From an uncultured Clostridia bacterium (GTDB taxonomy: Bacteria > Bacillota > Clostridia > TANB77 > UBA1234), in contig CAMUYU010000002.1 of assembly GCA_947164995.1 (NCBI GenBank), positions 3,909 through 67,908 on the forward strand: a stretch of 64,000 bases of DNA, given 5' to 3'. A model generated the notes under the pieces. The model saw nothing but the letters and a program-made list of their open reading frames with translations, was not told the DNA's origin and ran no database searches. Each line of letters starts with the position of its first letter. Position 1 is the stretch's first letter. Shown here one piece after another: positions 21,345 through 51,831 of the stretch. The translations under genes and the position numbers were made by a program.

Positions 21345-21478
21345 TATAAATATTGCTTTAAAGTATATATTTATTATATATTTTTTGAAATTATGCATAA
21401 TTTTTGCGTTTTTTTATACATTTTTCTTGAATATGTATAAAAAATGTGGTATTTTATACATATAAGGAGGTGAATAGT

Positions 21479-22540
21479 ATGAAATTGGAACTATTACCAT
21501 ACCAACATGTAAATTTAAAAACTAACAAGATATTAGAACAATTGACAGCTTCTTCACGAGCATTAGCAGAGCTTAAAGGATATGCAAATACAATACCAAA
21601 TATGCATATATTAATTAATGCTATAACAATTAATGAAGCAAAGGATAGTAGTGCTATAGAAAATATCGTAACTACGCATGATAGTATTTATAAAGTTCTA
21701 ACTGGAAGTGGCTATAAGGAAGAAAACGCAAAAGAAGTAGTTGATTATAGGACAGCTATTTGGACTGGATATGAGCAAATAAAAAAAGATGGTTATATTA
21801 GTACTAAAACTATTGTCAACATTCAAGAAGTTATAGAACATAACAAAGCAGGAATAAGAAAAATACCAGGAACTGAACTTAAAAATTCTATTACTGGAGA
21901 GACAATCTATACTCCACCACAAAATGAAAAAGAGATTCGTGACTATTTAAAAAATTTAGAAGATTATATTAATGATTTTAAAGATGGAGTAGATCCATTA
22001 ATAAAGATGGCAATGATACATTATCAATTTGAGAGTATTCATCCTTTTTATGATGGTAATGGAAGAACGGGAAGAATACTAAATGTATTGTACTTAGTAT
22101 TAAATAATCTTTTGAATAGTCCAATTCTATACTTGAGTAAATACATTAACGAAACAAAGCAGGAATATTATAGATTGCTTCAAAATATAAGAGAAAATAA
22201 TGACTTTGAAGAATGGGTTTTGTATATACTAAAAGGAGTTGAGATTACTTCTAAGGATACAATTAAATTAATTGAAAAAATACAAAATGAGATTAAATCA
22301 TATAAAGAAGATTTTAAATCTAAACTTCCAAAAATTTATTCAAAAGAATTGTTAGATAGTTTGTTTTATGAAGTATATACAAAGATTTCATATATAGAAA
22401 AAGCTTGCTCTGTTACTAGACTTACTGCAACTTCATATTTAAATCAATTAGAAGAAGTGGGATTACTAAAATCTGAAAAAATTGGTAGAGAAAAGGTTTA
22501 TAAAAATATTCGTTTGATTAAGATTTTATCAGACAATTAA
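21479..22540 (+). CDS. Fic family protein (AMPylase-type) with an N-terminal auto-inhibitory motif and a C-terminal wHTH-like tail
   Basis: The Fic motif HPFYDGNGRTGR is present, and SSAIEN matches the inhibitory [ST]xxxE[GN] motif. The start is set at the ATG at 21479, behind AAGGAGG; the ORF track begins at a GTG at 21446. Confidence 0.85.
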   Translation: MKLELLPYQHVNLKTNKILEQLTASSRALAELKGYANTIPNMHILINAITINEAKDSSAIENIVTTHDSIYKVLTGSGYKEENAKEVVDYRTAIWTGYEQIKKDGYISTKTIVNIQEVIEHNKAGIRKIPGTELKNSITGETIYTPPQNEKEIRDYLKNLEDYINDFKDGVDPLIKMAMIHYQFESIHPFYDGNGRTGRILNVLYLVLNNLLNSPILYLSKYINETKQEYYRLLQNIRENNDFEEWVLYILKGVEITSKDTIKLIEKIQNEIKSYKEDFKSKLPKIYSKELLDSLFYEVYTKISYIEKACSVTRLTATSYLNQLEEVGLLKSEKIGREKVYKNIRLIKILSDN

Positions 22541-23806: not shown

Positions 23807-23962
23807 ATGAGTAATATTATAGATGAATTTCAAAAGAAATATCCTACCAAAGAAGCTAAAGAACAGGCATTAAAAAATATGTCAAATTCCGATATACAAA
23901 AGCTAATTGATGCTTCTACCAATACAAATGGAAAGATATTTTATAGTAAATTTTTAAAATAG
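23807..23962 (+). CDS. Small hypothetical protein (51 aa)
   Basis: The ATG lies behind a GGAAGG RBS, and a strong terminator follows directly. Confidence 0.35.
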   Translation: MSNIIDEFQKKYPTKEAKEQALKNMSNSDIQKLIDASTNTNGKIFYSKFLK

Positions 23963-23967
23963 AAGGG

Positions 23968-24008
23968 TTGAACGATACGTCAAATTTAGGCTATCGTTCA
24001 ATTTTTTT
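23968..24008 (+). terminator. Intrinsic terminator
   Basis: The stem is TTGAACGATA/TATCGTTCAA, followed by a T7 run. Confidence 0.75.
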
Positions 24009-24164
24009 GTATCGGCGAACTGTGTTCGCCATATGGAGTACAAAGTGCTCCGCTACGAAAAACGCGAATTTGAACACGTTCCAATCCTTAGATAAATCGG
24101 GCAAAAAAGGTTGTCCCGGTTTGACCGATTTGATAGAATGTTTTTGAAAGAATGGGGGAAAAAT

Positions 24165-25358
24165 ATGAAGAAATTATTAGTATTATTAATAGTAGCGATT
24201 TTGTTGGTTGGGTGTGAACAAAAGAAAGAAGAAAACAACGATAATGTTGAAGTGGTTAATAATCCACAACCAACAACAACCGTTCAAAATACAAATAAAA
24301 AATTTGAAATTAAAAATGAATATATAGAAGAAAAGCAATTTGTAATTGATCCACAAGTAGATAATGAAGGTTATATGGATTGTAAAATAAATTTTTGGGA
24401 AGGTAAGGCATACTACACTGATGGATTCGGTAATGTTTTAAGAGGTCCATATGAAATAAGTGGCGACAGCATAACTATTAATTTTAATATGCTTGATGCA
24501 GAATATTCGGAAAAGCCACAACAATTAGATGTAGATGTTCATTTAAAAATGCTTGATGAAACTACAATTATAGTTGCTGAAACTCCACCACCATATACAG
24601 TTAAGACAAGCACATTTGTAGATGGAAACTGGGTATTTGATAGTGGCGAAAAAGAAATGACATTTCTTGGTTTTGTAAAAGATTATCGCTTTTATAAAGT
24701 GCCAGTAGTTGGAAAAATTGATGACACGAAAGAGTGGGTTTATGATGCAGAATATACAAAAGATGTAAAAGCGCCAAGCTATGAAGTTTGGGAGCAAACA
24801 TATTCTGCAGAAGATATAGTAGTTCCTTACATAAATATAGATTCAGATTATGCTCGTAAAGTAAATGCAGAGATTAAAGAAGCATTCAACAAAATAGTTG
24901 CACACTACAACGAAGGTGTTGAAGATGGCTTTTCTTACGTAGATACATGCGAGTATACAACATATGAATATGAAAATGGATTATTTGTGTTATTTACTTA
25001 TGGGCTAGGTGCAACAGATGTAGTTCATCCGGTGTATTGCGCATATAGTTTTGACTTAGTAGATGGAAGTAAAATGGACTTAGACTTTTTCTGTAACTTC
25101 ATTGGCCTTAGCAAGCCAGTAGTACAATTTTCAATTGAAACAAATATTGAAAAAATGGTTCGTGAAGAAATGAAAAGTTTTGATGAAGAAGAAATTAAAA
25201 CATATGTAGATTTATCTAAAAAATCTTTTGCAGATAAGTTCGAGTCTGAAGATGTTGATTTTACAATAGTTGGAGAAGGAGACCCATTTTTTGTAGTGGA
25301 TATTCAAATACCTGCAGGAACAGGGCATTTTGATACGCTAGTTGGAGTGTATGATTAG
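24165..25358 (+). CDS. Lipoprotein of unknown function
   Basis: The signal peptide MKKLLVLLIVAILLVGC contains the lipobox LVGC. The start is set at the ATG at 24165, behind GGGGGA. Confidence 0.7.
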   Translation: MKKLLVLLIVAILLVGCEQKKEENNDNVEVVNNPQPTTTVQNTNKKFEIKNEYIEEKQFVIDPQVDNEGYMDCKINFWEGKAYYTDGFGNVLRGPYEISGDSITINFNMLDAEYSEKPQQLDVDVHLKMLDETTIIVAETPPPYTVKTSTFVDGNWVFDSGEKEMTFLGFVKDYRFYKVPVVGKIDDTKEWVYDAEYTKDVKAPSYEVWEQTYSAEDIVVPYINIDSDYARKVNAEIKEAFNKIVAHYNEGVEDGFSYVDTCEYTTYEYENGLFVLFTYGLGATDVVHPVYCAYSFDLVDGSKMDLDFFCNFIGLSKPVVQFSIETNIEKMVREEMKSFDEEEIKTYVDLSKKSFADKFESEDVDFTIVGEGDPFFVVDIQIPAGTGHFDTLVGVYD

Positions 25359-25382
25359 AGGATGGATGAGGAGGACTTTCAA

Positions 25383-26369
25383 ATGGATTTATTTGAAAAG
25401 AATGGTAATTGCTTATATATTTTACACGTTTTAAAAAAGTACACTGATGAAGACCATGCAATTAGTGTTGCGGAGATTCAAAGAAAGATAAAAGAAATAT
25501 TTGATGTAGACATAGATTCTAGAACAATTAGAAGAAACATCACCCTTTTAAAATACAAATTAAACTATGATATCAGCACGAGAGACGAAAACAAAAGAGG
25601 GTACTACATCACAAGAGATCCTGAAACAGACTTCGAAGCTGGCGAAATAAGAGCAATAATAGACACTTTTAATTATAGTAATTTCATTGCACCTAGTGTT
25701 GCAAAAGGGATTATAGGAAAGTGCAAAAACTTGCAAAATGTGTATGAAAACGAAAAATTAAAAGATTATCAAATTCTTGTTCCAGATAACAAAACACAAA
25801 ATAAAGAAGTAATAAAAAATTTGGAAGATATCTCTGAAGCAATTTTAAATAATAATAAAATCTCTTTTGAATATTGGAAATATAGATTAAATGATAAATT
25901 AGAAAAGCAAATTTCAAGTTCTCCAACAGTTTCGCCTTATGCCATCGTATATAACAAACAAGAGTTTTATCTAATATGCTTAAAGGATGATAAAGAAGAG
26001 CTTTCTCATTATAGAATAGACAAAATGAAAAACGTAAAAGTAATTAAAAAGAGTAGCGTTACTCGTAAAACAAAAAAAGAAGTGCGAGATTTTGCGTTAT
26101 CTGCGGTTGAAATGTTTGGTGGAAAAACTACAAAAATAACAGTAATTTGCAATAACATTTTATTGGATGAAGTAATAGAAAGATTTGGAAAAGACATAAA
26201 GATAAAAAAAGTCGATGAAGATAGCTTTAAAATGACAGTAGATGCCAATATAATGGGCTTTAAGTTTTGGGTAATGAGAAACATGGATATGGTGACAGTA
26301 GTTACACCTACTGAATTAAGGAAAGAATTGAAAGAAATAGCTGAAAAAGCTTATAACGAATACAAATAA
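25383..26369 (+). CDS. WYL-domain transcriptional regulator (N-terminal HTH + WYL)
   Basis: The N-terminal part reads ISVAEIQRKIKEIFDVDIDSRTIRRNITLL (HTH). The central part reads SPYAIVYNKQEFYLICL...HYRIDKMKNVKV (WYL-type). A GAGGAGG RBS lies 9 nt before the ATG at 25383. Confidence 0.7.
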   Translation: MDLFEKNGNCLYILHVLKKYTDEDHAISVAEIQRKIKEIFDVDIDSRTIRRNITLLKYKLNYDISTRDENKRGYYITRDPETDFEAGEIRAIIDTFNYSNFIAPSVAKGIIGKCKNLQNVYENEKLKDYQILVPDNKTQNKEVIKNLEDISEAILNNNKISFEYWKYRLNDKLEKQISSSPTVSPYAIVYNKQEFYLICLKDDKEELSHYRIDKMKNVKVIKKSSVTRKTKKEVRDFALSAVEMFGGKTTKITVICNNILLDEVIERFGKDIKIKKVDEDSFKMTVDANIMGFKFWVMRNMDMVTVVTPTELRKELKEIAEKAYNEYK

Positions 26370-26474
26370 TGTGCATTGTGTGTCCAAGCAACTTGAAAAA
26401 GTTTGTATATTATTATATATTGATAATGATGCTGCTGCTGGATAGTTTCTATTTTGCTGTATTCATATATCACA

Positions 26475-26509
26475 AAAGAAAACTATTGGTAATGATAGTT
26501 TTCTTTTTT
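26475..26509 (+). terminator. Intrinsic terminator after the WYL gene
   Basis: The stem is AAAGAAAACTAT/ATAGTTTTCTTT, followed by a T-run. Confidence 0.7.
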
Positions 26510-26565
26510 AGTTTAGATGAGGTTGATTTGTCGGAAATAAAAGATGGGAAGGTTGAAATTGTAAG

Positions 26566-27024
26566 ATGAAAGAAATTGATATTAACAATCAAATGATGAT
26601 TTATTTCTATAGCCCTCAAGGAACATATTCAAGAATTCAGTATTGTTTGTATTTATTAGGATTAGATAAGAAAAAGAAAATTGGAAACACATATCTTCAT
26701 AATCTTGCATTTGATATTGCAAGAGAAAATGATTTAAATAGATATTTTAAATATGATGTAATATATTTAGATGGATTTTATGATTCTGGATTTTATGGTC
26801 AAGCTGGCAAGGAACGTTTTATTGAAAGCGAAGAAATGACGAGGTTGATTGTTGAGTTTATGGAAAGGCTAACTAGAAATGACATTCAAATTGTTATGGC
26901 TGGACACGGTAGACTTGATTCAATAAGTACTTTACCTAAAAAACTTAAGGATCAAATTGTTGAAATTGATTTATTCTATGACGAAGGCTGGTCTTATGAT
27001 TATGAAATCGAGTACGGTATTTAA
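26566..27024 (+). CDS. Hypothetical protein (152 aa), first gene of the HAD/phosphoesterase/ARH operon
   Basis: The ORF has an RBS (GGGAAGG). No motif was recognised. Confidence 0.5.
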   Translation: MKEIDINNQMMIYFYSPQGTYSRIQYCLYLLGLDKKKKIGNTYLHNLAFDIARENDLNRYFKYDVIYLDGFYDSGFYGQAGKERFIESEEMTRLIVEFMERLTRNDIQIVMAGHGRLDSISTLPKKLKDQIVEIDLFYDEGWSYDYEIEYGI

Positions 27025-27052
27025 TAAAAATATGATAATTGAGGATAAGTAA

Positions 27053-27505
27053 ATGAATTTAGTTTTTTTAGATTATGATGGTGTTGTAAATACAATGCAA
27101 TTTTTTTCAAACGAAGAAAATCCACGAGAGTGTACACCAAAAGATAATATGGTTAGCAATTATCAAGCATGCAGATGGCTTTCTAAATTATGTTTGGAAA
27201 CTAATAGTAAGATTGTTGTAACAAGTTCATGGAGATATGAGGATAATTATAAAGAATGTTTGTATAATGGCGGATTAGATTCTAGGGTTGAAATTCTCGG
27301 AAAAACAGAAGAGTTTAATTTCCAATCTAGAGGGTTTGCAATTAATCACTTCATAGAACATTTTAAGGAGCCAATAGAACATATAGTCATTCTTGATGAT
27401 AGAAACGATATGGATGAGTATAATAAGTTTTTGGTTGAGTGCAATCCAACAATAGGCTTTACAATGCAAGATTATTGGAAAGCAAAGGAGATATTGGAAA
27501 AATAA
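27053..27505 (+). CDS. Small HAD-like phosphatase (resembles the stand-alone HAD module of 'Swiss-army-knife' RNA-repair proteins)
   Basis: Motif I is FLDYDGVVN. VTSSWR supplies the motif II Ser/Thr and ILDDRND the motif IV acidic residues. Confidence 0.55.
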   Translation: MNLVFLDYDGVVNTMQFFSNEENPRECTPKDNMVSNYQACRWLSKLCLETNSKIVVTSSWRYEDNYKECLYNGGLDSRVEILGKTEEFNFQSRGFAINHFIEHFKEPIEHIVILDDRNDMDEYNKFLVECNPTIGFTMQDYWKAKEILEK

Positions 27506-27506
27506 A

Positions 27507-27549
27507 ACTAGTAATCTTATGTAACGTCAAAAAGGGTTGTCCCTAATTG
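27507..27549 (+). repeat. Copy 1 of the intergenic element ACTAGTArTCTTATGTAACGTCAAAAAGGGyTGTCCCTAATTG
   Basis: It is near-identical to 32985-33028 and, in inverted orientation, to 32879-32911. A partial match lies at 24102-24117. Confidence 0.7.
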
Positions 27550-27568
27550 GCACTAATAATTTGTAAAG

Positions 27569-28183
27569 ATGGTGATAATGTTGTTTAACCATTTTGATAA
27601 GGTAATAAATGGTACTATTAATAAAAGAATTCAGTTTGGAATAGTTAAAGGAAATAATACCATTGTACATATAAAAGCTGGAATTGGAGGTTCTTTATAC
27701 GGATATAAAAAGAAGTATTACAAAATGGCAAAAAGAATAAACCGTAAGTATGGCTATACAGTAATATGTGCTTCTAATCCATCTGTATTTCCTGCCACTT
27801 TAGAAGATAGTGATATTTTAATAACTAGTTATTGTAATAAGAGAGGCTTTGAAGAATATCAAATATATTATGTCGGTTTTTCAAATGGAGGAAATCTTGG
27901 ATTATTATGTGGTATCAATAATGATAAAATAAAACGAATGCTTATAGTAAACACTCCTATTTTTGACTATGAAAAATCAATAAAAGATATTAATAGTTTT
28001 AAAGGTGAAAAAATAGTTTTTGTATATGGAAGTTTAGATGATTGTGGATTTGATATCAATAGATTAAAGAATAATTGCCCTAATGCAAAATTTTTTATAG
28101 TTGAAGGAGCGGATCACCAGTTTGTTGGCATGTTAAAAGAATTCATAGAACTTCCGGAAAAATATTTTTTAGAGGATAAGTAG
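27569..28183 (+). CDS. Alpha/beta-hydrolase-like protein (204 aa)
   Basis: It has the GFSNGG nucleophile elbow and a C-terminal GADHQF. Confidence 0.5.
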   Translation: MVIMLFNHFDKVINGTINKRIQFGIVKGNNTIVHIKAGIGGSLYGYKKKYYKMAKRINRKYGYTVICASNPSVFPATLEDSDILITSYCNKRGFEEYQIYYVGFSNGGNLGLLCGINNDKIKRMLIVNTPIFDYEKSIKDINSFKGEKIVFVYGSLDDCGFDINRLKNNCPNAKFFIVEGADHQFVGMLKEFIELPEKYFLEDK

Positions 28184-28184
28184 A

Positions 28185-28895
28185 ATGATATTTGATAAGT
28201 TGTTTAAACAAAATAAAAAGTACTATGATTACGAAAAAAGCATTTCCTATAATGCTAAAGCCAGAAAAATAAGTAAGCCTATAAGACTTCTAGTAATATC
28301 AGATACACATGGAGACTTGGCATTAAGCAAGACTTTGAAATATGATATTATAGATAAAGAGTTTGATTTGTGTTGTATTTTAGGAGACATTCATTATTAT
28401 GATTATGAAGTGATACTAGAGTATATTCCTAAAGACAAAATTGTTGCTTTACTTGGTAACCATGATAGTTTTGATCTACTTAAGACATATGACTTAAAAG
28501 ATTTAAATGGTAAAGTTGTAGAAGTAAATGGAATAAGAATTGGTGGAATTCAAGGAAGTAGTAGGTATAAGGATTTAGCTTTTCCATCATTTACGCAAGA
28601 AGAAAGCATAAATTTTACTGAAAAAATGCCATATGTTGACATACTGCTATCGCATGATAAGCCGTTTACGATTTCATATAATCAAGATAATCCTTTTATT
28701 CCTGATTTTTGTGATGCTCATGATGGACTCAAAGGAATTACAAAATTTTTATATGATAAACAAGTTCCTATAAATATACATGGGCATCTTCATACAAGTG
28801 ATTTGACTACTCTAAAAAATGGCACACAAGTAAAGGGAGTATATGAGGTTGAATTGTTAGAAATCAAGGATGGAGAAATAAAGAAAATTGATTAA
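28185..28895 (+). CDS. Calcineurin-like metallophosphoesterase (paralog 1)
   Basis: The motifs VISDTHGD, LGD, GNHD and HGHLH are present. Confidence 0.75.
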   Translation: MIFDKLFKQNKKYYDYEKSISYNAKARKISKPIRLLVISDTHGDLALSKTLKYDIIDKEFDLCCILGDIHYYDYEVILEYIPKDKIVALLGNHDSFDLLKTYDLKDLNGKVVEVNGIRIGGIQGSSRYKDLAFPSFTQEESINFTEKMPYVDILLSHDKPFTISYNQDNPFIPDFCDAHDGLKGITKFLYDKQVPINIHGHLHTSDLTTLKNGTQVKGVYEVELLEIKDGEIKKID

Positions 28896-28939
28896 AAGGC
28901 AATACAAGAACATGAAGAAATGTATGGAGAATAAAAATA

Positions 28940-29638
28940 ATGTTTGAAAGTTTATTCAAAAGTAGAATTAATAGTAATTTAACTAAGGTTCATGAAGAAA
29001 AACTATATAAGAAATATGGCAATTGTGATTCAGTTTCAAAAAGTATCAAATTGTTGGTAGTTTCAGATACACATGAATATTTAGCATACAATCATAAATG
29101 GCAAGAAAAACTTTTAAATGCAAAAGATTATGATTTGTGTTGTGTTTTAGGAGACATATCTAATGGAGATATTGAGACTGTTTTAGAGTATATTCCAAAA
29201 GAAAAGATAATTGGAATTTTAGGAAACCATGATGATTTTGACTTTTTGAAGAAGTATGATATACAAGATATTAACGGAAAAACGGTTGATGTTAATGGAA
29301 TTAAAATTGGTGGCATACAAGGGGCAATAAGATGTTATGGCAAATACGATTATCCATGTTTTTCTCATTCTGATAGCATTAAATTTATGGATAATATGGA
29401 AAAAGTTGATGTTTTATTATCTCATTCAGGACCTTTTTATGATTATAATGATGACCCTTTTCACAATGGTTTAAAGGGAATTACTAAGTATTTGTATAAA
29501 AATAAAATTCCTATAAATATACATGGACACCTACATAAAAATAAGCAAAAGTTTTTAAATAATGGGACTTTGGTTCAATGTATTTATGGAGTTGAACTTA
29601 TAGAAATTAAGGATGGTAAAATTAAAGTGGTTTCGTAA
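28940..29638 (+). CDS. Calcineurin-like metallophosphoesterase (paralog 2)
   Basis: The motifs VVSDTHE, LGD, GNHD and HGHLH are present. It is collinear with the upstream paralog and roughly half its residues are identical by eye. Confidence 0.75.
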   Translation: MFESLFKSRINSNLTKVHEEKLYKKYGNCDSVSKSIKLLVVSDTHEYLAYNHKWQEKLLNAKDYDLCCVLGDISNGDIETVLEYIPKEKIIGILGNHDDFDFLKKYDIQDINGKTVDVNGIKIGGIQGAIRCYGKYDYPCFSHSDSIKFMDNMEKVDVLLSHSGPFYDYNDDPFHNGLKGITKYLYKNKIPINIHGHLHKNKQKFLNNGTLVQCIYGVELIEIKDGKIKVVS

Positions 29639-29676
29639 ATCACTAATAGTATTAATAAAATAAGGAGTTGTTGAAA

Positions 29677-30468
29677 ATGTTAGGAGCAATATGCGGAGAC
29701 GTTGTGGGTTCAATATATGAATGGCACAACATAAAGACAAAAGATTTTAAATTATTTGAAGGAAACTGTGAATTTACAGATGATAGTGTAATGACAGTTG
29801 CAATCGCAAAGGCATGTGTTGAATATTTAAAAGATAAAGATATATATAATTTTAAAAATAATTGTGTTAAATATATGAAATTGTTTGGGCTTAGATATCC
29901 AAATTCTGGCTATGGTGGGAAGTTTTATTTATGGTTAGGAAGCACTAACCCTCAACCATACAATAGCTATGGAAATGGATCTGCAATGAGAGTTTCGCCT
30001 GTAGGATGGATTGCAGAATCACTTGAAGAAGCGGAAAATTTAGCAGAAGTATCTGCAGAAGTAACACACAATCATCCAGAAGGAATTAAGGGAGCAAAAT
30101 CAATTGCAGGTGCAATATGGCTTTTGAGAAATGGAAAAAGCAAAGAAGAAGTTTTGAAATACATAAAAGATAATTACTATGATATTGATTTTACTCTAGA
30201 TGAAATAAGAGCAACGTATAGATATGATGTAACTTGTCAAGGCTCTGTACCACAAGCAATAGAAGCTTTTATAGAATCAACAGATTTTGAAGATGCAATC
30301 AAAAATGCAATTTCAATTGGTGGTGACTCCGATACAGTTGCAGCAATTACTGGAAGCATGGCAGAAGCTTGTTACGGAATGACACAAGAATTAAAAGAAA
30401 AAACAATTAGTTATTTAGGAGAAGATTTAAAAGAAGTAGTTGAAGAGTTTGAAAATTTAAAATTTTAA
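29677..30468 (+). CDS. ADP-ribosylglycohydrolase family protein
   Basis: It has the N-terminal GAICGDVVGS, FTDDSVMT and C-terminal GGDSDTVAAITGSMAEA. The start is set at the ATG 9 nt after AAGGAG. Confidence 0.8.
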   Translation: MLGAICGDVVGSIYEWHNIKTKDFKLFEGNCEFTDDSVMTVAIAKACVEYLKDKDIYNFKNNCVKYMKLFGLRYPNSGYGGKFYLWLGSTNPQPYNSYGNGSAMRVSPVGWIAESLEEAENLAEVSAEVTHNHPEGIKGAKSIAGAIWLLRNGKSKEEVLKYIKDNYYDIDFTLDEIRATYRYDVTCQGSVPQAIEAFIESTDFEDAIKNAISIGGDSDTVAAITGSMAEACYGMTQELKEKTISYLGEDLKEVVEEFENLKF

Positions 30469-30481
30469 GGAGGAAAAGAAA

Positions 30482-31132
30482 ATGGAAATTAATTTAACTA
30501 ATGCAGACATTAATGCAATAAACACAAATGATAAGGATTATATCAATAATAAGGGTGCAAAGTTTTATAATGAAGGAAAATATGAAGAAGCGGTTGAATA
30601 TTATAGATTAGCTTCTGCAATGGGTGACACTCATGCAACGAGTAATTTAGGTTATTGCTATTTATATGGAAGAAGTATTCCTATAAATGTAGATTTTGCA
30701 ATTCAGTATTTTAAACTTGCAGCTAACAAGGGAGACTTAGATGCAATATATAAATTAGGTGATATATACAGCAGAGATAAATGGGGTAAGAAAGATCCTG
30801 AATTAGCAATATATTATTATTTAAAAGGCTTGCAAGAGTTTCAAGATGATTGGGGCGATGTTTATTATAATGATAGAACAAGGCTTTATCCAAGCTTATT
30901 CTTTGCAATTGGAAGAGAGACAATGCCAGAAGGTTTGTTAAATACAGATATTTATTTTGCATATGTTTGCTTAAATATTGCAAAAGAGGGCTATGAAGAA
31001 AGCTTAGCTAATGGTGAAGAAATGTATAGAGAATCTTATACTAATGTTTTGAATTTGTTACAAGATAGCGTATTCAATGATGTTAGAGAAAGATTTGAAA
31101 AAGAGTATAAAGATGAAGAAGATAAAGGATAG
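30482..31132 (+). CDS. Sel1-like/TPR repeat protein
   Basis: It has repeated A..YY..AA..G...A...LG.CY..G units. The TAG stop abuts copy 1 of the 36-bp repeat. Confidence 0.7.
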   Translation: MEINLTNADINAINTNDKDYINNKGAKFYNEGKYEEAVEYYRLASAMGDTHATSNLGYCYLYGRSIPINVDFAIQYFKLAANKGDLDAIYKLGDIYSRDKWGKKDPELAIYYYLKGLQEFQDDWGDVYYNDRTRLYPSLFFAIGRETMPEGLLNTDIYFAYVCLNIAKEGYEESLANGEEMYRESYTNVLNLLQDSVFNDVRERFEKEYKDEEDKG

Positions 31133-31167
31133 GTGTACAATACGGTAAATTTGAGGTATCGTACAAC
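31132..31167 (+). repeat. 36-bp repeat, copy 1 (GGTGTACAATACGGTAAATTTGAGGTATCGTACAAC)
   Basis: This is the reference copy. It contains the internal imperfect palindrome TGTACAATAC / GTATCGTACA. Confidence 0.9.
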
Positions 31168-31175
31168 CGAAGGCG

Positions 31176-31508
31176 GTGAGAAATCAATATGGCATTAAAG
31201 AAAGAGAAAGTCTTGAACTCGTTAATACACTTATTTCAAGAATTAGGAATGACCGAAACGGAGGCAACAGACTTGATAATGGCAATATCAATAACAAAGT
31301 CGGAGTTCAAGGTGCTACAGGCACTAAAGAACAGGTACGAGGGAAACGAGGACGTGCCGACGAAGGACGAAGTGAGAGAAATAGTAGCAAAAATAGCTTA
31401 GATAATATAGCTTATTCAAGAACCATTGAGGTGTACAATACGGTAAATTTGAAGTATCGTACAACGGAATGGGTTGTTGCCGAAAGAAGTGTTGAATACA
31501 ATAGTTAG
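31176..31508 (+). CDS. Hypothetical G/N/R-rich protein (111 aa) reading through repeat copy 2
   Basis: By hand count, third-position GC is about 29%, against about 52% for the alternative 70-aa frame (31189-31401). A confident gene in this window sampled at about 20%. The GTG start has a poor RBS, so coding status is uncertain. Confidence 0.3.
   Translation: MRNQYGIKERESLELVNTLISRIRNDRNGGNRLDNGNINNKVGVQGATGTKEQVRGKRGRADEGRSERNSSKNSLDNIAYSRTIEVYNTVNLKYRTTEWVVAERSVEYNS
31430..31465 (+). repeat. 36-bp repeat, copy 2
   Basis: It matches copy 1 at 35 of 36 positions (G>A at 31453). Confidence 0.9.
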
Positions 31509-32040
31509 AACAAACACGCAACCCCAACAACAAACGACATCAAACGTTGTTCCTGTCAATAACACCCCAACAAATGTTGCAAGACCAACACAGGAAGCTA
31601 CGGTTGTTCCACCACCTAACACATACACACCAAGCACAACGCTACCACCGTTGACTAACACAACAAACAGTAATATAATTTCCTCTGAAGAGGGGGAACT
31701 AATTAATGGACTTTCTAGTAATAGACCTGTTCAACAAGATGGCGGAAAAGGGAGTGTCGGGGAAAACACGAGTGGAAATATTGCAAGCCTTGAAAAAACG
31801 AGAGCAAATGGAAAAAGTGTACCTACATCTCAAAGTATTGCCACAGAACCTAACGGACAAGGAAATGAAGAAACTGGTGAAGAAACTCCTACAAGAATAG
31901 CAGAAGCCATGAAAAAAGCAGAAGATACTTTTGGCGAAACAGATGATTATAAATATAGTGCTTGGTTGACCACTAAGGTGTACAATATGGTAAATTTGAG
32001 GTATCGTACAACTACAAGCAAAAGAGCGACGTATGGTTGA
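31474..32040 (+). CDS. Hypothetical T/P/N/Q-rich low-complexity protein (188 aa) reading through repeat copy 3
   Basis: This is the longest ORF in the region. Hand-counted third-position GC is about 18% over its second half, against about 54% for the overlapping 64-aa alternative frame. The start is TTG. The tract is AC-rich, so several frames are open. Confidence 0.4.
   Translation: MLPKEVLNTIVRTNTQPQQQTTSNVVPVNNTPTNVARPTQEATVVPPPNTYTPSTTLPPLTNTTNSNIISSEEGELINGLSSNRPVQQDGGKGSVGENTSGNIASLEKTRANGKSVPTSQSIATEPNGQGNEETGEETPTRIAEAMKKAEDTFGETDDYKYSAWLTTKVYNMVNLRYRTTTSKRATYG
31977..32012 (+). repeat. 36-bp repeat, copy 3
   Basis: It matches copy 1 at 35 of 36 positions (C>T at 31988). Confidence 0.9.
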
Positions 32041-32160
32041 AAGAGTGCTAAATATATGGTACAATAGAACAAATAAATAATAGTGTAACGGTAGCACAGC
32101 TTGATTGAGCAAGTTTGCGTTCGACTCGCAATTATTTTTTATAATTTTTAATATTACTAA

Positions 32161-32189
32161 TAGACGTTATAACCTAACGTCTATTTTTT
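32161..32189 (+). terminator. Intrinsic terminator just upstream of repeat copy 4
   Basis: The stem is TAGACGTT/AACGTCTA with an 8-nt loop, followed by a T6 run. Confidence 0.7.
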
Positions 32190-32194
32190 ATGCA

Positions 32195-32230
32195 GGTGTA
32201 CAATACGGTAAATTTGAGGTATCATACAAC
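32195..32230 (+). repeat. 36-bp repeat, copy 4
   Basis: It matches copy 1 at 35 of 36 positions (G>A at 32224). Confidence 0.9.
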
Positions 32231-32392
32231 TTTTAAATAATAGACTTTTGGGACGTCCTTTAAAAGTCCAACAATTGTAACTAATTATGACATATTTATG
32301 GACTATCCTTTTTAACAAACCTTTGAAAAATTAGCCAAAAAAGCCACATCATCTAAGTATTTTTAGCGTACTTTAATGATGCGGCCATATTT

Positions 32393-32878: not shown

Positions 32879-33028
32879 CAATTTGGGACAACCCTTTTTG
32901 ACGTAACATAAAACTTTAACAAAGAAGGTATTACGTAAGTAGCGTAATACCTTTTTGTTTTGCCTCAAATGGAAAAAGTCAAATACTAGTAGTCTTATGT
33001 AACGTCAAAAAGGGCTGTCCCTAATTGA
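32879..33028. mobile_element. MITE-like unit: two inverted copies of the ~33-bp intergenic element flanking ~80 bp that contains a hairpin plus T-run
   Basis: 32879-32911 is the reverse complement of 32994-33028, with about 30 of 33 positions matching. The internal hairpin is AAGGTATTACG/CGTAATACCTT (32925-32953), followed by TTTG. Confidence 0.45.
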
Positions 33029-33259: not shown

Positions 33260-33625
33260 ATGTATGAAGTTAAGTATTATCGTGATGATAATGGTTATTC
33301 AGAGATTGAAGAGTTAATAGAGTCGCTTAATAACCAAAATGGCAAGGATGCAAGAGTACAACTTGCAAAGATTAAAGCATATATAGAAATGTTAGAAAAA
33401 TATGGTAAATCTTTAGGATTTCCATATATGAGACCAATAATAGGAAGCAAGGAGCTTTGGGAGTTGCGACCACTGAGACATCGAATATTATTTGTTGCGT
33501 GGTACAACAATAGTTTTGTACTTCTTACACATTTTATAAAACGTACAGACAAAACTCCTAAAGTGGAAATAGAAAGAGCAGAAAGAGTGCTAAAGAAAAT
33601 GAAGGAGAGTGATTGTGATGAGTAA
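33260..33625 (+). CDS. RelE/HigB-superfamily toxin (phage Gp49-like)
   Basis: The 121-aa ORF has LWELRP...RILF...FVLLTHFIKRTDKTP. It overlaps the downstream HTH gene by 8 nt. Confidence 0.7.
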   Translation: MYEVKYYRDDNGYSEIEELIESLNNQNGKDARVQLAKIKAYIEMLEKYGKSLGFPYMRPIIGSKELWELRPLRHRILFVAWYNNSFVLLTHFIKRTDKTPKVEIERAERVLKKMKESDCDE

Positions 33626-33902
33626 AAATCTTGGTACCATGGAAGAACTATTTAAAAATGTAAAATTCACAAAAGAAGAGAAAGAAATGATTAGACTTGA
33701 AAAAGAGCTAATCGAAGCATGCATAAAAGGAAGAAAACGCAAAAATATTACACAAGTTGAGTTAAGTGAAATGACAGGGATTCCTCAGCCAACTATTGCT
33801 AGGCTTGAAGCTCAGACCAATTCACCCAAGGTCGATACACTTATGAAATATTTGTATGCTTTAGGGTACAGCTTAACTGTGGTTCCAATAAAGAAACAAT
33901 AA
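33618..33902 (+). CDS. XRE-family HTH antitoxin (HigA-like)
   Basis: It has ITQVELSEMTGIPQPTIARLE, an XRE-type HTH. It is coupled to the toxin gene. Confidence 0.7.
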   Translation: MSKNLGTMEELFKNVKFTKEEKEMIRLEKELIEACIKGRKRKNITQVELSEMTGIPQPTIARLEAQTNSPKVDTLMKYLYALGYSLTVVPIKKQ

Positions 33903-33913
33903 TTTAAGAAGAA

Positions 33914-33945
33914 AAAGACCTAGTTTTAAACTAGGTCTTTTTTAT
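33914..33945. terminator. Bidirectional terminator between convergent genes
   Basis: The stem is AAAGACCTAGT/ACTAGGTCTTT, flanked by an A-run and a T-run. Confidence 0.7.
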
Positions 33946-34589
33946 AACTCTTTAATTTCCTTTCCACAAGTTGAATACATAATATTATTTGCTTCTATAA
34001 CATTATATATTTTATTCTCTATCAAATAGTGCATTACTACATTTTCATTGCAATTTTTTGTTAAATAATAATCTGCAGATTTTAACAAAGCCAAAGAATC
34101 TTTAATAGATAACTCTAAACTTAAACATAGTTGCAACACAGTTCCTTTTGAAGGATGGTAGTTGTCGTTGCTTCTAATCTTTGAAAAAGTTTTTCTATCT
34201 ACTCCAGCCTTTTTATAAACCTCAACATCAGTTAAACCTCTACTATCAATCATTTCAAAAAGCAAATCTTTAAAAGTCTTTTCAGTTTTGGGTGGAAGCT
34301 TAATACCTTCAATAGCAGCACACTCAAAATTATCCATAGAGCCAGCAAAAAAAGAAGGCTCAGAGCTTCTTGCTTTTCTAGCAAATTCTTTTGGCTCAGC
34401 TTTTTTTGTAGCCCTAATACGATCTGTAAAAATAGCCTCTCTACATACACTCTCTTCACGCTTTTTAGCCTTTTTCTCTAATTTTTCTTGTAACTTTTTT
34501 AACTCCAGTTGCAATTTTTCAGGGATTTTAACAATAGTTGGTTTTGGCAATAAATCAAATTCCATATTTGTCTCCTTTAAAGCGACCAC
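33942..34589 (-). CDS. HTH-domain protein (215 aa), divergent from the VIT-vWA gene
   Basis: The C-terminal part reads LTDVEVYKKAGVDRKTFSKIRSN...PSKGTVLQLCLSLELS, an XRE-like HTH. The N-terminal part is a K/E-rich coiled coil. Confidence 0.6.
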   Translation of the reverse strand: MVALKETNMEFDLLPKPTIVKIPEKLQLELKKLQEKLEKKAKKREESVCREAIFTDRIRATKKAEPKEFARKARSSEPSFFAGSMDNFECAAIEGIKLPPKTEKTFKDLLFEMIDSRGLTDVEVYKKAGVDRKTFSKIRSNDNYHPSKGTVLQLCLSLELSIKDSLALLKSADYYLTKNCNENVVMHYLIENKIYNVIEANNIMYSTCGKEIKEL

Positions 34590-40630: not shown

Positions 40631-41905
40631 ATGTTTAGTAATGTTTTAGATTATAACAAGATAGTAATTGATAAAAATGGGGTTAAAACAAGAAGAGAAG
40701 GTATCAAATTGTACATTGATTGTATTTATAAGAACAAGACTTATGCTCAGAATTATAGTGGAGATGTATTATCTGTAATGATACCTGGGTCTGGACTTCA
40801 GGGCGGATTTAGACCGGTTGGTTCGAAAAATGGAAAGTATCCTACTCATGTTGCACTTTTCTCAACTAATAAAGATCCTTATTGGAGAGATGAATTAGAT
40901 GAGGAATTAGGTTTGTATATTTATTATGGGGATAATAAAAACCCCGGAAGTGAGTTGCATAGCAAAAAAGGAAATAGAATTTTAAAAGAAACTTATGAGT
41001 ATGTATCATCAGATTCATTTGAAGAAAGAAAAAAAATTGCTCCATTTTTTTTATTTGATCGAGATAATATTGGTGGAGTAAGATTTAGAGGTTTATTGAT
41101 ACCAGGATACAAAGGAATTCCGGCAAGAGAATGGCTGACTGCACTATGGGCAAAACGAGATGAGGGGGGTAGATTTCAAAATTATAAAGCAATATTTACA
41201 GTACTTGATACATCAAGTGGTAGCAAAGCTTATCCAAATGATGCTTCAATTGATATAAGATGGTTAGATGATATTGCTTTCGGAAAAGCTTATGAGAGTA
41301 TATATGCCCCAGTGGCATGGAAAAATTGGGTAAAAAATCCACAATGTTATAAACCATTAAAAACGAACGTATCACCTAAAATACGTTCTCAAGCAGATCA
41401 ACAACCCAAGCCAGAAGAAAGAGAACAAATAAAAATGTTAGATATGATTGTAAATTATTTTGAAAAAGATAGGACTAAATTTGAACCAATGGCAATAAGA
41501 TTAGCAATGTTATCTGACAATAATATTTTTGAGGACCCAAAGCAGACTCGAAAAGTCAAGGATGGAGGAAGAGATGGAATTGGTAAATATAGAATAATGA
41601 GTGGATTAAGCAATCCACTTCATACGACATTTGCAATAGAAGCAAAATGTAAAAAAAGAGATAATGCGGTTCATGTTCATGATACTGCAAGACTTATTTC
41701 TAGAATAAGACATCGACAATTTGGAGTATTTGTTACTACGTCATATGTTGACGAATACGCCTACAAAGAAATAATAGAAGATGATCAACCTATTTCAATA
41801 ATTGCGGGCAAAGATATTATTGACATATTATCTAAAGTGGAAGAAGTTCGAAATTGTGAACAATTACAGCAGTATTTAGAAGCAAATTTTCCAAAAGAAA
41901 AATAG
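40631..41905 (+). CDS. Restriction endonuclease with a C-terminal Mrr-type PD-(D/E)xK domain and an N-terminal putative DNA/modified-base reader
   Basis: The C-terminal part reads GGRDGIGKYRI...TFAIEAKC...FGVFVTTSY, with D...E-x-K spacing as in Mrr-cat. The N-terminal 250 aa are not assignable by eye. Confidence 0.65.
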   Translation: MFSNVLDYNKIVIDKNGVKTRREGIKLYIDCIYKNKTYAQNYSGDVLSVMIPGSGLQGGFRPVGSKNGKYPTHVALFSTNKDPYWRDELDEELGLYIYYGDNKNPGSELHSKKGNRILKETYEYVSSDSFEERKKIAPFFLFDRDNIGGVRFRGLLIPGYKGIPAREWLTALWAKRDEGGRFQNYKAIFTVLDTSSGSKAYPNDASIDIRWLDDIAFGKAYESIYAPVAWKNWVKNPQCYKPLKTNVSPKIRSQADQQPKPEEREQIKMLDMIVNYFEKDRTKFEPMAIRLAMLSDNNIFEDPKQTRKVKDGGRDGIGKYRIMSGLSNPLHTTFAIEAKCKKRDNAVHVHDTARLISRIRHRQFGVFVTTSYVDEYAYKEIIEDDQPISIIAGKDIIDILSKVEEVRNCEQLQQYLEANFPKEK

Positions 41906-41922
41906 AATGGGAGTCATATATT

Positions 41923-43041: not shown

Positions 43042-43043
43042 TA

Positions 43044-51357: not shown

Positions 51358-51405
51358 TGTAATAATGTTTTATTAGAAAGAAATTACAAATAATAAAGGG
51401 TTAAG

Positions 51406-51457
51406 AGTCTAGTTATAAAGGTGAGTTGATATAATGGCCTTGATAACTAGACTTTTT
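51406..51457 (+). terminator. Hairpin plus T-run ending the cassette operon
   Basis: The stem is AGTCTAGTTAT/ATAACTAGACT (11 bp) with a 26-nt loop, followed by TTTTG. The loop is large, so confidence is moderate. Confidence 0.5.
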
Positions 51458-51497
51458 GTGTGATAGAATACCCAAGTAACAGAGGGAAGGTATAAAA

Positions 51498-51815: not shown

Positions 51816-51831
51816 ACAATAGGGGATAATT

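Follow-up and report, generated by a model that had tools for sequence, protein, structure and literature searches.

A directional 36-bp repeat suggests a cassette-exchange site at one chromosomal hotspot of uncultured Clostridia

Near-identical copies of a 36-bp repeat, here called R, separate small unrelated modules in a 64-kb stretch of DNA from an uncultured Clostridia bacterium (the window), and the same repeat bounds other sets of modules in four related metagenomic contigs, one of them from a second lineage. These arrays suggest that R is the border of swappable modules and an undescribed cassette-exchange site in a Gram-positive genome. We put at about 40% the probability that R serves a sequence-specific recombination enzyme as its recognition and junction site, with the array working like an integron or a Neisseria NIME array.

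A polar repeat between self-contained units

The array stands in a defence-island setting: a WYL-domain protein gene (25362–26369) lies in the island next to it, and the hotspot adjoins a conserved lipoprotein gene. The features of the region are as follows.

23968–24001, minus strand: solo diverged repeat TTGAACGATAGCCTAAATTTGACGTATCGTTCAA, inverted relative to the array, found as a sequence-model match
30482–31132, plus strand: Sel1-repeat gene abutting R1, the last gene of a WYL / HAD_SAK_2 / metallophosphatase / ADP-ribosylglycohydrolase cluster
31132–31167, plus strand: R1, with the consensus sequence; the TAG stop of Sel1 ends on its first G
31189–31401, plus strand: ORF70, the gene of cassette 1, for a 70-aa helical protein; RBS GGTGAG, without its own promoter
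31430–31465, plus strand: R2, G24>A
31651–31679, plus strand: promoter-like site of cassette 2, TTGACT-17-TATAAT, 11 of 12 matches
31706–31900, plus strand: ORF64, the gene of cassette 2, for a 64-aa four-helix protein; RBS AGGGGGAA
31977–32012, plus strand: R3, C12>T
32037–32065, plus strand: promoter-like site of cassette 3, TTGAAA-17-TACAAT with a TG extension
32068–32153, plus strand: tRNA-like small RNA of cassette 3, with a T-arm-like terminator (32115–32131) plus T run; a second terminator lies at 32159–32185
32195–32230, plus strand: R4, G30>A, the terminal copy; 11 nt further on begins flank DNA common to contigs L001, L003 and L004
32242–32370: conserved right flank, with the palindrome GACTTTTGGGACGTCCTTTAAAAGTC (32243–32268) and the bidirectional terminator of the lipoprotein gene

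The preliminary description of this DNA located the repeats correctly. Four copies of GGTGTACAATACGGTAAATTTGAGGTATCGTACAAC begin at 31132, 31430, 31977 and 32195, all on the plus strand, with 0, 1, 1 and 1 mismatches; copies 2–4 each differ from copy 1 by a single transition (31453, G>A; 31988, C>T; 32224, G>A), the spacers between them measure 262, 511 and 182 bp, and copy 1 begins on the G of the Sel1 stop codon. None of 100 dinucleotide-preserving shuffles contained any match to the 36-bp R, and a sequence model of R, run over the 64-kb window with filters off, matched the four array copies and one diverged copy only. The inverted arms TGTACAATAC and GTATCGTACA pair at 9 of 10 positions, as described earlier; the two GTACAA words lie 26 bp apart from start to start, which corrects an earlier figure of 25. 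At the centre of R, a palindromic AAATTT shares the axis of the arms (between positions 18 and 19) and extends the dyad inward. R is a 32-bp dyad, TGTACRATAC-ggtAAATTTgag-GTATNGTACA, within a 36-bp repeat, in which inverted half-sites, TGTAC(A/G)ATAC, lie 22 bp apart from centre to centre around the invariant asymmetric sequence GGTAAATTTGA. This asymmetric centre confers polarity on R, and within any one array every copy has the same orientation.

Each window interval is a unit of its own: a 70-aa gene, a promoter with a 64-aa gene, and a promoter-driven tRNA-like small RNA with terminators. The related contigs L001 and L002 carry ORF70 homologues, 97% and 78% identical, that are bounded by the same repeats; the ORF70 substitutions fall 12/9/25 by codon position, and the AlphaFold model of its protein has four helices at a pLDDT of 67. 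The ORF64 model reaches a pLDDT of 89; Foldseek found no structural match to it at E < 0.001, and a comparison of ORF64 with 1.8 billion representatives gave just two weak matches, both to long proteins. The promoter, RBS and start region of cassette 2 are homologous to cassette X of L001. The RNA of cassette 3 scores 40.9 bits (E = 2e-4) against the Rfam family SpF41_sRNA, under the gathering score of 52. ARAGORN called no tRNA in the window, and a T-box elsewhere was the sole Rfam match in the window at the gathering threshold. Searches of Pfam, PHROGs, NCBIfam and PADLOC with the small cassette proteins yielded no meaningful match, a chimeric protein query joining the cassette ORFs had no match at all, and exact look-ups made with window proteins brought up no record. 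The AC-rich tract, T-arm-like hairpin and terminators reported earlier for the spacers are all present. Promoter-like sites with 10–11 of 12 matches belong to window cassettes 2 and 3, to cassettes 1 and X of L001 and to cassettes 1 and 3 of a further contig, L007; the modules are self-contained, each with its own RBS and often with its own promoter and terminator.

Scans of the window with PADLOC and Pfam found the WYL-domain protein and no Cas protein. The earlier remark that no recombinase is visible nearby holds for the scanned ORFs (most of those of at least 110 aa in the 64-kb window, and several smaller ones); neither these ORFs nor the short related contigs gave a recombinase, transposase, integrase or GIY-YIG nuclease.

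Arrays and solo copies in related contigs

Four array-bearing loci are known, from two lineages. Contig L001 reads R, a reversed gene for a 57-aa membrane protein with its own promoter, R, small ORF X, R, an ORF70 homologue, R and the right flank of the window, whereas L002 reads R, ORF70 homologue, R. In L007, of the second lineage, a gene stop is followed by R, the gene of a 146-aa membrane protein, R, a reversed PBECR3 toxin-domain fragment, R, and a promoter, SAM riboswitch and gene. Modules are thus found in either orientation between two R copies, so that n modules come with n+1 repeats. Seen from the conserved flank, ORF70 is the most distant module in the window and the closest one in L001. 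Spacer lengths across the arrays are irregular, ranging from 182 to 654 bp (250–615 bp in L001 and L007). The strain comparison proposed in the preliminary description has thus shown that the content, number and order of the inter-repeat segments vary at one hotspot by the lipoprotein gene. All known arrays occupy the same chromosomal position, and no move between loci has been seen among them.

The right flank (32242–32370) is 97% identical in L001 and also occurs in the array-free contigs L003 and L004. In L003, L004, L005 and L008 the locus is present without an array, and these array-free loci hold no single 'empty' copy of R, which lends no support to simple serial insertion into a resident att core. 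Homology between L007 and L005 stops at the stop codon abutting R; the PBECR3 frame in L007 is open up to the R edge and lacks the first ~50 positions of the profile. In L006, a solo R-like copy stops exactly where homology to the lipoprotein promoter of the window and L008 starts. Such breaks of homology at R edges support R as a junction.

Conservation of the repeat is high. By tally, 28 of the 36 positions are invariant in 12 full-length copies from two lineages (the alignment holds 9 sequences), and the neighbouring lipoprotein is 77% identical between the two R-bearing lineages. Positions 24 and 35 mark the lineage: all three L007 copies have C24 and T35, and in all nine full copies of the window lineage position 24 is G or A and position 35 is A. 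The window and L002 differ at 1 of 70 nt in R and at 1 of 49 nt in the UTR, against 46 of 213 nt in the coding sequence of ORF70; P was about 1e-6 in a Fisher test of 0/70 versus 46/213. Four plus-strand genes terminate 0–2 nt ahead of an R copy; beyond terminal copies like R4 no gene follows, and certain other copies have a convergent gene ending towards them.

Diverged solo copies occur in the window and, one each, in L005 and L006. In the window copy (23968–24001) both arms are altered symmetrically, from GTAC to GAAC and GTTC. It lies 5 nt past the stop of a 51-aa ORF (23807–23962), is followed by T7 on the plus strand, and forms the left edge of a 7-kb gene cluster that includes the WYL gene and has R1 as its right edge; it is upstream of this cluster, and the nearest -10-like hexamer, read from the sequence, is ~140 nt downstream of it. 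The copy in L006 provides TTGACG, 16 nt from the extended -10 of the lipoprotein gene. These placements, as a possible terminator (23968–24001, T7) or -35 (L006), make a regulatory role possible.

A strict 32-mer scan gave nothing in viral, genome or metagenome contigs; a relaxed pattern gave nothing in genome or viral contigs and a single metagenome contig, L007; the R pattern had 0 matches in 185,579 species representatives; and blastn searches with the region and with the 36-mer brought up nothing, or chance-level matches only, from phages and plasmids. REP and BIME palindromes are dispersed in many copies over the intergenic regions of a genome; in these 64 kb, R is limited to this locus and a diverged copy 7 kb off.

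Proposed exchange at R and its rivals

Array architecture, variation between strains, sharp junctions at the R edges and the pattern of conservation are what we observe; that an enzyme mediates recombination at R, and which enzyme this would be, we infer in this analysis. On this reading R would delimit exchangeable DNA modules at one chromosomal hotspot, its most likely partner being a site-specific recombinase encoded elsewhere in the genome. A dimer would bind the chromosomal R together with an R on incoming or excised DNA, and exchange within R would add, remove or reorder modules, regenerating R at each border, so that the copies of one lineage would stay identical. The invariant positions, the lineage variants and the symmetric arm change in the solo copy point to a protein partner rather than to neutral DNA, and the AAATTT in the dyad, needless for an RNA loop, counts for a site acting at the DNA level. 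Terminal copies without a gene and copies facing convergent 3' ends fit borders, not promoters or operators. The cassette or att-type sites considered earlier gain support from the comparison, in which the same repeat bounds unrelated modules whose content and order vary; the likeness to attC fails on length, core boxes and integrase. On the other side weigh the lack of a recombinase among the scanned ORFs, the lack of an empty R copy at array-free loci, the small number of array-bearing loci, all at one position, and the placement of the solo copies. Modules of 182–511 bp are also very small for double-strand circle formation, and RecA-mediated exchange between 36-bp repeats could give the same variation in content. 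A related reading, which we hold to be rather unlikely, is that the array is the product of an undescribed DNA-capture platform in Bacillota, in which a dedicated enzyme would recognise the 36-bp R and restore it with each insertion. Such an enzyme might be a recombinase that works on R in double- or single-stranded form or, alternatively, an integrase that duplicates the whole repeat, as Cas1–Cas2 does, and the platform would store arbitrary foreign segments of ~0.2–0.65 kb (complete small genes as well as truncated ones, a riboswitch unit and an sRNA).

Other DNA-level explanations would do without exchange by a dedicated enzyme. Possible, if doubtful, is a passive hairpin repeat of the NIME/dRS3 kind that marks a hotspot of recombination and either offers RecA a short patch of homology with transforming DNA or is targeted by an ssDNA nuclease that modulates this exchange, with no dedicated recombinase and with modules that are whatever DNA gathered between the copies. 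The palindromic repeats between unrelated, syntenic and strain-variable units recall Neisseria NIME arrays (PMC1797815), whose hairpin-forming repeats have a direction and are cleaved by SsnA in single-stranded form (PMC11893778); the R arrays lie at one hotspot between conserved genes, their presence or absence as a whole (L003, L005) fits allelic replacement through flanking homology, and diverged solo copies are present. A homology patch, however, needs neither a dyad nor an invariant asymmetric centre nor conservation across lineages. R also has no match to the published SRM motif, no GIY-YIG gene is among the scanned window ORFs, R is confined to this locus within 64 kb whereas dRS3 has hundreds of copies per genome, and the units here are genes rather than non-coding RS elements of 50–150 bp. 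We regard as distinctly unlikely a reiterated operator or promoter for a dimeric regulator of the island, such as the WYL protein (25362–26369) or a neighbouring HTH protein (33609–33902 or 33942–34589), with the array variation incidental. The 32-bp dyad would suit such a regulator, and R contains a promoter-like geometry (TGTACA-17-TATCGT) in which variation at positions 29 and 30 hits the -10 bases that matter least; R3 and two L007 copies (L007a and L007c) sit 16–25 nt upstream of a -35, and the solo copies named above supply the lipoprotein -35 in L006 or precede the WYL-containing cluster. This leaves terminal copies (R4, and the last in L001) and copies at convergent 3' ends with nothing to regulate, and it does not explain a gene truncated exactly at the R edge. 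The orientation of R is fixed although that of the genes varies, the centre of R is better conserved than its half-sites, and the solo window copy is far from the nearest -10-like hexamer. A promoter with TTGAGG as its -35 was rejected because no consistent -10 follows. BrxR-type WYL regulators do bind inverted repeats, with more than one box per island possible (PMC9122601), and their R-BOX resembles R as an imperfect inverted repeat in a defence island with a WYL gene. Its 10–11-bp repeats are separated by 5 bp and lie between promoter and gene (PMC9122601), whereas the spacer in R is 12 bp and most copies are not so placed.

RNA- and protein-level explanations, and simple duplication, fare worse. 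The minus strand of R folds into a perfect 10-bp stem with one G-U pair (-9.7 kcal/mol, z = -3.75), the plus strand more weakly (-7.2 kcal/mol, z = -1.7); 36 nt is a typical CRISPR repeat length, and a position just after gene ends is known for REP elements too. Yet a hairpin at which a long RNA would be processed or stabilised, in the manner of CRISPR or REP and possibly on the minus strand, is very unlikely: the ten pairs show zero compensatory change among 8 distinct sequences, positions 7/30, 8/29 and 12/25 vary uncompensated (8/29 is never Watson–Crick), the irregular 182–654-bp spacers have their own promoters and terminators on both strands, the scanned window ORFs include no cas genes, no Rfam family matches R, and an RNA role leaves the palindromic loop centre unexplained. 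We give still less credence to a decayed tandem duplication of one small gene and its intergenic region, in which gene conversion kept 36 bp alike. ORF70, ORF64 and ORF X of L001 look like distant paralogues with a common K(T/S)x(V/F)(E/K)(I/V)LQALK, ORF70 and ORF64 share a predicted four-helix layout, and the three cassettes share ~10–15 nt of extra homology on each side of R. Duplication may account for part of the window array; against it as an account of the whole stand modules with the same core that are unrelated to the small-protein family (sRNA, membrane protein, toxin fragment and riboswitch) and the L007 array, which has no member of that family. A C-terminal peptide encoded by R, ranked least likely at the outset, is refuted by the comparison of homologous cassettes and retains next to no probability. 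The frame VYN[T/M]VNL[R/K]YRTT is open in 4 of 4 window copies and continues into ORFs 31176–31508 and 31474–32040, as described. The earlier placing of R at the 3' ends of open frames is therefore right as to the frames, but the long frames that enter R are not genes: stop codons interrupt them in the homologous cassettes that L001 and L002 carry, and real genes end before R, the conserved gene of interval 1, ORF70, being in a different frame. ORFs that cross R use three different frames (for example, L001 ORF 1802–2125), and all three window substitutions are non-synonymous in the peptide frame. A Ter site was also considered and rejected, as were known regulator boxes (LexA, WalR, CtsR, NrdR and TnrA); cassettes as tandem transposons with inverted ends fail because the outermost repeats are complete.

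Comparison with known systems

Like CRISPR arrays, the R arrays have a 36-bp partly palindromic direct repeat, an n+1 layout, lineage-specific variants and one conserved flank. CRISPR spacers, in contrast, are regular and ~25–70 bp long, whereas the R intervals are irregular functional transcription units of 182–654 bp. R has no CRISPR-related Rfam match, and a CRISPR array is ruled out by spacer size and the absence of cas genes in the window scans; a resemblance to Cas13b repeats was rejected along with it.

Serial insertions in SCC composite islands, dif-integrated IMEX and pdif modules leave n+1 direct site copies that bound n unrelated modules, some without a recombinase of their own; the first site copy lies at a gene 3' end, and the empty locus keeps one copy. 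Their sites are ~18–28 bp, with a Xer central region of 6–8 bp, and the modules are kilobases long. The R arrays are like them in having n+1 copies and unlike them in sequence, geometry, module size and the empty-locus copy. A Xer/dif site has two ~11-bp arms around a 6–8-bp centre; the arms of R are 12 bp apart, and R has no TTATGTAAA-type XerD arm. Serine recombinase sites are dyads of ~26–40 bp with crossover at a central dinucleotide, a geometry that R fits with its 32-bp dyad centred on A18|T19; among the scanned window ORFs there is no gene with a Resolvase or Recombinase domain. The R half-sites TGTACAATA resemble TGTCYNNTA, the consensus for resolvases.

Integron and CALIN arrays share more of the layout. 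They too consist of compact modules, mostly small genes of unknown function, each accompanied by an imperfect palindromic site in a single orientation; some cassettes are reversed and have their own promoters, a stop codon often abuts the site, and sites resemble each other more closely inside one array or lineage than across several, as for R. Such arrays can lie far from any integrase (PMC4889954); Phage_integrase or IntI genes are absent from the scanned ORFs of the 64-kb window, and a CALIN would not need IntI. An attC site spans 57–141 bp with two pairs of binding boxes (PMC3053210), whereas R has 36 bp, one pair of 10-bp arms and a 12-nt centre. In place of the attC boxes RYYYAAC...GTTRRRY, R reads 5'-GGTGTAC...GTACAAC-3' on the plus strand and 5'-GTTGTAC...GTACACC-3' on the minus strand; its AAC-type box is at the wrong end on both strands, and position 5 is T, not the R of the consensus. 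Promoters are rare in integron cassettes (PMC4889954), whereas many R modules have their own.

The NIME arrays of Neisseria are likewise syntenic and vary between strains in the number, length and content of their units, with palindromic, directional, hairpin-capable repeats between unrelated units. NIME repeats have been proposed as targets of a specific recombinase, provide a phage recombinase with an att site and are SsnA substrates when single-stranded (PMC1797815, PMC11893778). The repeat itself differs: ATTCCC-N8-GGGAAT or the 28-nt NTS in NIME, and the 36-bp TGTACRATAC-N12-GTATNGTACA in R. NIME units are non-coding RS elements of 19–214 bp, whereas R units are 182–654 bp with genes, an sRNA or a riboswitch; dRS3 occurs in hundreds of copies genome-wide, R in 5 copies in 64 kb, all at the edges of one cluster; and the NIME hosts are Betaproteobacteria, that of R a low-GC Clostridia. 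The SRM motif, HGTCWYN(0-2)YYVSBRHN(0-5)WNVSBRGN(0-2)RNCYNB (PMC11893778), searched as a regular expression, matches neither R nor any of its variants and occurs neither in the window nor in any of the loci. The ssnA gene encodes a single-domain GIY-YIG protein (cd10448) and is often flanked by the repeats (PMC11893778); no such gene is among the scanned window ORFs.

Should R be no more than an operator or a passive repeat, the interest would shrink to that of a small oddity at a single hotspot. No complete integron has been found in Firmicutes (PMC4889954, PMC3053210) and NIME arrays are described as Neisseria-specific (PMC1797815), so an array of exchangeable modules in uncultured Clostridia would matter. 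The tiny four-helix proteins, small membrane proteins and tRNA-like sRNA are candidates for conflict-related functions. If the exchange reading is true, this organisation of accessory DNA arose again in Gram-positive bacteria, pointing to a site-specific enzyme with a defined 32–36-bp target unrelated to attC, dif, dRS3/NTS and CRISPR repeats; and if the array is a capture platform, it would be the integron's functional counterpart in Gram-positive bacteria, working through an unrelated site.

The repeat and the modules it bounds

The 36-bp repeat R (GGTGTACAATACGGTAAATTTGAGGTATCGTACAAC) lies on the + strand at 31132, 31430, 31977 and 32195, as in the preliminary description. Copies 2–4 each carry one transition (31453, 31988 and 32224) and 100 shuffles of the window gave 0 matches, confirming that the four-copy array is real and ruling out chance. 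A model of the repeat sequence, run with filters off, added only one diverged copy in the window (23968–24001, − strand). The inverted arms of R, 10 bp long, pair at 9 of 10 positions and, because the central AAATTT is palindromic on the arm axis, dyad symmetry covers 26 of the 32 inner positions.

The spacers between the copies R1–R4 (262, 511 and 182 bp) each contain their own unit. The surrounding low-GC (about 30%) sequence is of Clostridia chromosome type; it encodes SLH-domain proteins and numerous defence proteins, and a T-box precedes its aspartyl-tRNA synthetase gene.

Modules of the window array (promoter and terminator calls here and throughout are consensus matches only)
31189–31401: ORF70, small-protein gene of cassette 1; ribosome-binding site (RBS) 21 nt past R1
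31651–31679: promoter-like site TTGACT-17-TATAAT of cassette 2, upstream of ORF64
31706–31900: ORF64, small-protein gene of cassette 2, behind the promoter-like site and a strong RBS
32037–32065 (+): promoter-like site TTGAAA-17-TACAAT of cassette 3, preceding the small RNA
32068–32153 (+): tRNA-like small RNA gene of cassette 3, with a T-arm-like terminator at its end
32159–32185: second terminator, behind the small RNA

ORF64 is confidently predicted to fold as a four-helix bundle (pLDDT 89), and ORF70 has the same predicted helix layout at low confidence; family and structure searches returned no match for either. In the small RNA, an acceptor-like stem of A and U only is accompanied by a D-loop-like GG and by a perfect T-arm (TTGCG-TTCGACT-CGCAA) that also serves as terminator. 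ARAGORN called no tRNA there, and the Rfam match to SpF41_sRNA of Streptococcus (40.9 bits, E = 2e-4) is below the gathering score of 52. Reports of SpF41 are confined to strain-specific S. agalactiae regions (PMC6064168).

Two long frames entering R (31176–31508 and 31474–32040) had been noted previously, and a shared C-terminal peptide had been ranked last among the candidate explanations. The frames are not conserved genes and the peptide is refuted: stops break the frame reading into R in the homologous cassettes of two related metagenomic contigs, L001 and L002, and an L001 ORF spanning two R copies reads R in two other frames.

Related arrays and their junctions

Among 5.8 billion proteins, ORF70 has only two relatives, both encoded between R copies (L001 and L002). 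A relaxed pattern scan detected a further array on L007, whose lineage is related to the MAG contig L005. Only four array-bearing loci are known (window, L001, L002 and L007), from two lineages, and all but the window are short metagenomic contigs.

Order of elements in the related arrays
L001: R, 432-bp module (reverse-oriented 57-aa membrane protein gene with its own TTTACA-17-TATAAT promoter-like site), R, 250-bp module (small ORF X), R, ORF70 module, R, right flank
L002: R, ORF70 (78% amino-acid identity), R, a different continuation toward a DUF4298 gene
L007: 96-aa membrane protein gene (TAG stop abutting R), R, 146-aa membrane protein gene, R, reversed PBECR3 fragment, R, promoter, SAM riboswitch and gene

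The first of the four L001 copies comes after an unrelated 369-aa gene with a TAG stop, and the right flank is shared with the window at 97% identity. The DUF4298 gene neighbours, in L003 and L004, the lipoprotein gene that lies beside the window array. The L007 riboswitch (473–560, −) is a SAM-I element (RF00162) whose 52.8 bits exceed the gathering score; it lies within one cassette, has a promoter-like site and a terminator to itself, and the gene downstream of it has no Pfam match. A SAM-I riboswitch is unusual cargo in a small mobile-looking module.

At the lipoprotein locus, the array is absent from L003 (91% lipoprotein identity to the window), L004 (in a 100% cluster), L005 (77%) and L008 (80%), as well as from L006 (78%), which has a solo R-like copy only; no single R copy is kept at array-free loci. 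A 1.5-kb AAA_28 gene module occupies the array position in L003 and adjoins the same flank sequence. Comparing the inter-repeat segments between strains, as had been proposed, revealed module content and order that vary at one hotspot. Searches of 185,579 species-representative genomes and of phage and plasmid collections did not find R, and no movement of an R array between loci was seen among the four array-bearing loci.

Homology between related genomes begins or ends at R edges in three independent comparisons; between L007 and L005, for example, it stops at the stop codon abutting the first R. In three arrays the first R lies 0–2 nt past the stop codon of an intact, different gene, and ORF X of L001 ends on the base preceding an R copy. 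The L007 PBECR3 fragment (645–958, +; phage Barnase-EndoU-ColicinE5/D-RelE-like toxin domain, Pfam E = 3.5e-14, profile positions 51–113 of 115) is a 3′ fragment whose frame is open up to the R edge and lacks the first ~50 domain-profile positions, so the gene is cut exactly at R. In L006 (1464–1515), the last base of the solo R-like copy TGTTACATATGACAAATTTGACGTATCGTACAAC directly precedes the lipoprotein gene's extended −10 (TGTGATATAAT), a region common to the window and L008 lipoprotein promoters. This copy offers TTGACG as a −35, 16 nt upstream of the extended −10, and seems to have been recruited to supply half of the promoter.

Other features of the region

A second motif, dispersed and about 40 bp long (CAATTAGGGACAACCCTTTTTGACGTTACATAAGA), is intergenic, around the same island and close to arrays; its 18-bp core has 5 matches in the window against 0.13 expected. 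A related form, GGTTGTCCCTTTTTG, comes after the R-like copy in L005.

Features around the array
24100–24117 (−), 27526–27543 (−), 32885–32902 (+), 33004–33021 (−): cores of the second motif
32299–32316 (+): degenerate core; the motif is also present at L002 503–520
32873–33033: MITE-like structure between the lipoprotein gene and a Gp49/HTH toxin–antitoxin pair; its 43-nt inverted repeats (86% complementary), made of the GGGACAACCCTTTTTGAC motif, flank a 75-nt interior that carries a bidirectional terminator; missing at that position in L004
32243–32268: palindrome GACTTTTGGGACGTCCTTTAAAAGTC, 12 nt right of R4, conserved in L001 and L003
33199–33243: perfect 19-bp inverted repeat (TTATAACAAAAATGTTATA / TATAACATTTTTGTTATAA) overlapping a TAGACA-17-TATAAT promoter-like site
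16–17568 (+): one open reading frame of 5850 codons, filling the first 17.5 kb
21446–22540: Fic protein, upstream of the defence island
24111–31132 (+): tightly packed cluster, with the inverted solo R-like copy on one side and R1 on the other, encoding a lipoprotein, WYL/WCX regulator, two uncharacterised proteins, HAD_SAK_2 protein, alpha/beta hydrolase, two metallophosphatases (PADLOC PDC-S10), ADP-ribosylglycohydrolase and Sel1 protein
40631–53799 (+): dense defence island with an AspBHI-like/Mrr restriction enzyme, C5 DNA methylase, HATPase_c_3, Z1, DUF4420, AIPR and a Schlafen-type helicase

Sequence similar to GACTTTTGGGACGTCCTTTAAAAGTC (AGACTC...GGGACGTCC...AAAAGTCC) lies on either side of the L003 AAA_28 module (about 12060–12135 and 10515–10590), which suggests a second kind of junction site at the same hotspot. 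The 19-bp inverted repeat is directly upstream of the Gp49-like toxin/HTH antitoxin pair (33260–33902) and is probably its operator. HAD_SAK_2 is the ‘Swiss Army Knife’ RNA-repair HAD domain, and the cluster encoding it could be a system for RNA repair or conflict; only its ADP-ribosylglycohydrolase is shared with L003.

Conservation, interpretation and known systems

In 12 full-length copies from two lineages (a 9-sequence alignment was also made), 28 of 36 R positions are invariant, the asymmetric centre GGTAAATTTGA fully so; positions 2, 8, 12, 24, 29, 30, 35 and 36 vary. Between the window and L002, R copies differ at 1 of 70 positions and ORF70 coding sequence at 46 of 213 (22%, half synonymous; 12/9/25 at codon positions 1/2/3). 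The cassette UTRs (31168–31188 and 31402–31429) are nearly identical, with 1 substitution in 49 positions and a 3-nt indel. Given the coding divergence, the constrained or homogenised tract therefore reaches ~20–30 nt past the 36-bp core. The 3′ end of the ORF70 cassette forms a full terminator hairpin in L001 (AAGAACCATTAATGATGGTTCTTTT), truncated in the window and L002. C24 and T35 occur in 3 of 3 L007 copies; the window lineage has A35 in all nine of its full copies, with either G or A at position 24. These lineage-specific variants reflect concerted evolution or co-evolution with a partner.

Array copies contain no compensatory change in the R hairpin, and positions 8/29 are never Watson–Crick, whereas the solo copy at 23968–24001 has both arms altered symmetrically (GTAC to GAAC and GTTC). 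With the palindromic centre, this pattern favours a symmetric protein that would recognise double- or single-stranded DNA over an RNA structure; an RNA hairpin is very improbable.

Across the arrays, n self-contained modules of unrelated content, lying in either orientation, are delimited by n+1 like-oriented copies of one conserved dyad. From this architecture, the variation at the hotspot and the breakpoints at R edges, we read R as a site-specific recombination site. We infer that a putative sequence-specific recombination enzyme would use R as its recognition and junction site, with a probability of about 0.4. The half-site presumably resembles a resolvase consensus; the ORFs scanned in the 64-kb window yielded no recombinase, transposase or GIY-YIG nuclease. 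The cassette-site idea of the preliminary description is the best supported of its candidates, through architecture, strain variation and R-edge junctions; its mechanism is putative, and its likening of R to attC failed.

R could instead be a passive hotspot repeat resembling those of Neisseria NIME arrays, used by homologous recombination or targeted by a single-stranded DNA nuclease. This account, which the NIME-like architecture would fit, is rather unlikely; the ORFs scanned in the window include no ssnA-like gene. A reiterated operator, perhaps of the WYL regulator in the adjacent cluster, is less probable still. Decayed tandem duplication may account for the three paralogous small-protein cassettes, which have ~10–15 nt of extra homology on either side of R, but it cannot account for the unrelated modules and is the least probable of these rival readings.

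R lacks the defining features of CRISPR, dif/Xer and BrxR-box elements, and, compared with REP elements, numbers four array copies and one diverged copy within the 64-kb window. In architecture, its closest analogue is the NIME array, in which 20-bp dRS3 or 28-nt NTS hairpin repeats separate >100 unit families in arrays that are syntenic but variable; these repeats have been proposed as targets of a recombinase, a phage recombinase uses them, and SsnA cuts them as single-stranded DNA (PMC1797815, PMC11893778). However, R does not match the published SRM motif, and the units it bounds are genes, whereas NIME units are short non-coding elements. Like the R arrays, integron cassette arrays and CALINs have compact modules with a single site at each border, sites that all point one way and are homogeneous within an array, and stop codons abutting the site. 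In contrast to attC, R differs in length, boxes and core polarity, and Firmicutes are not known to carry complete integrons (PMC3053210, PMC4889954); many R-bounded modules also have their own promoters. The R array belongs, as a variant, among repeat-bounded mosaic or cassette arrays.
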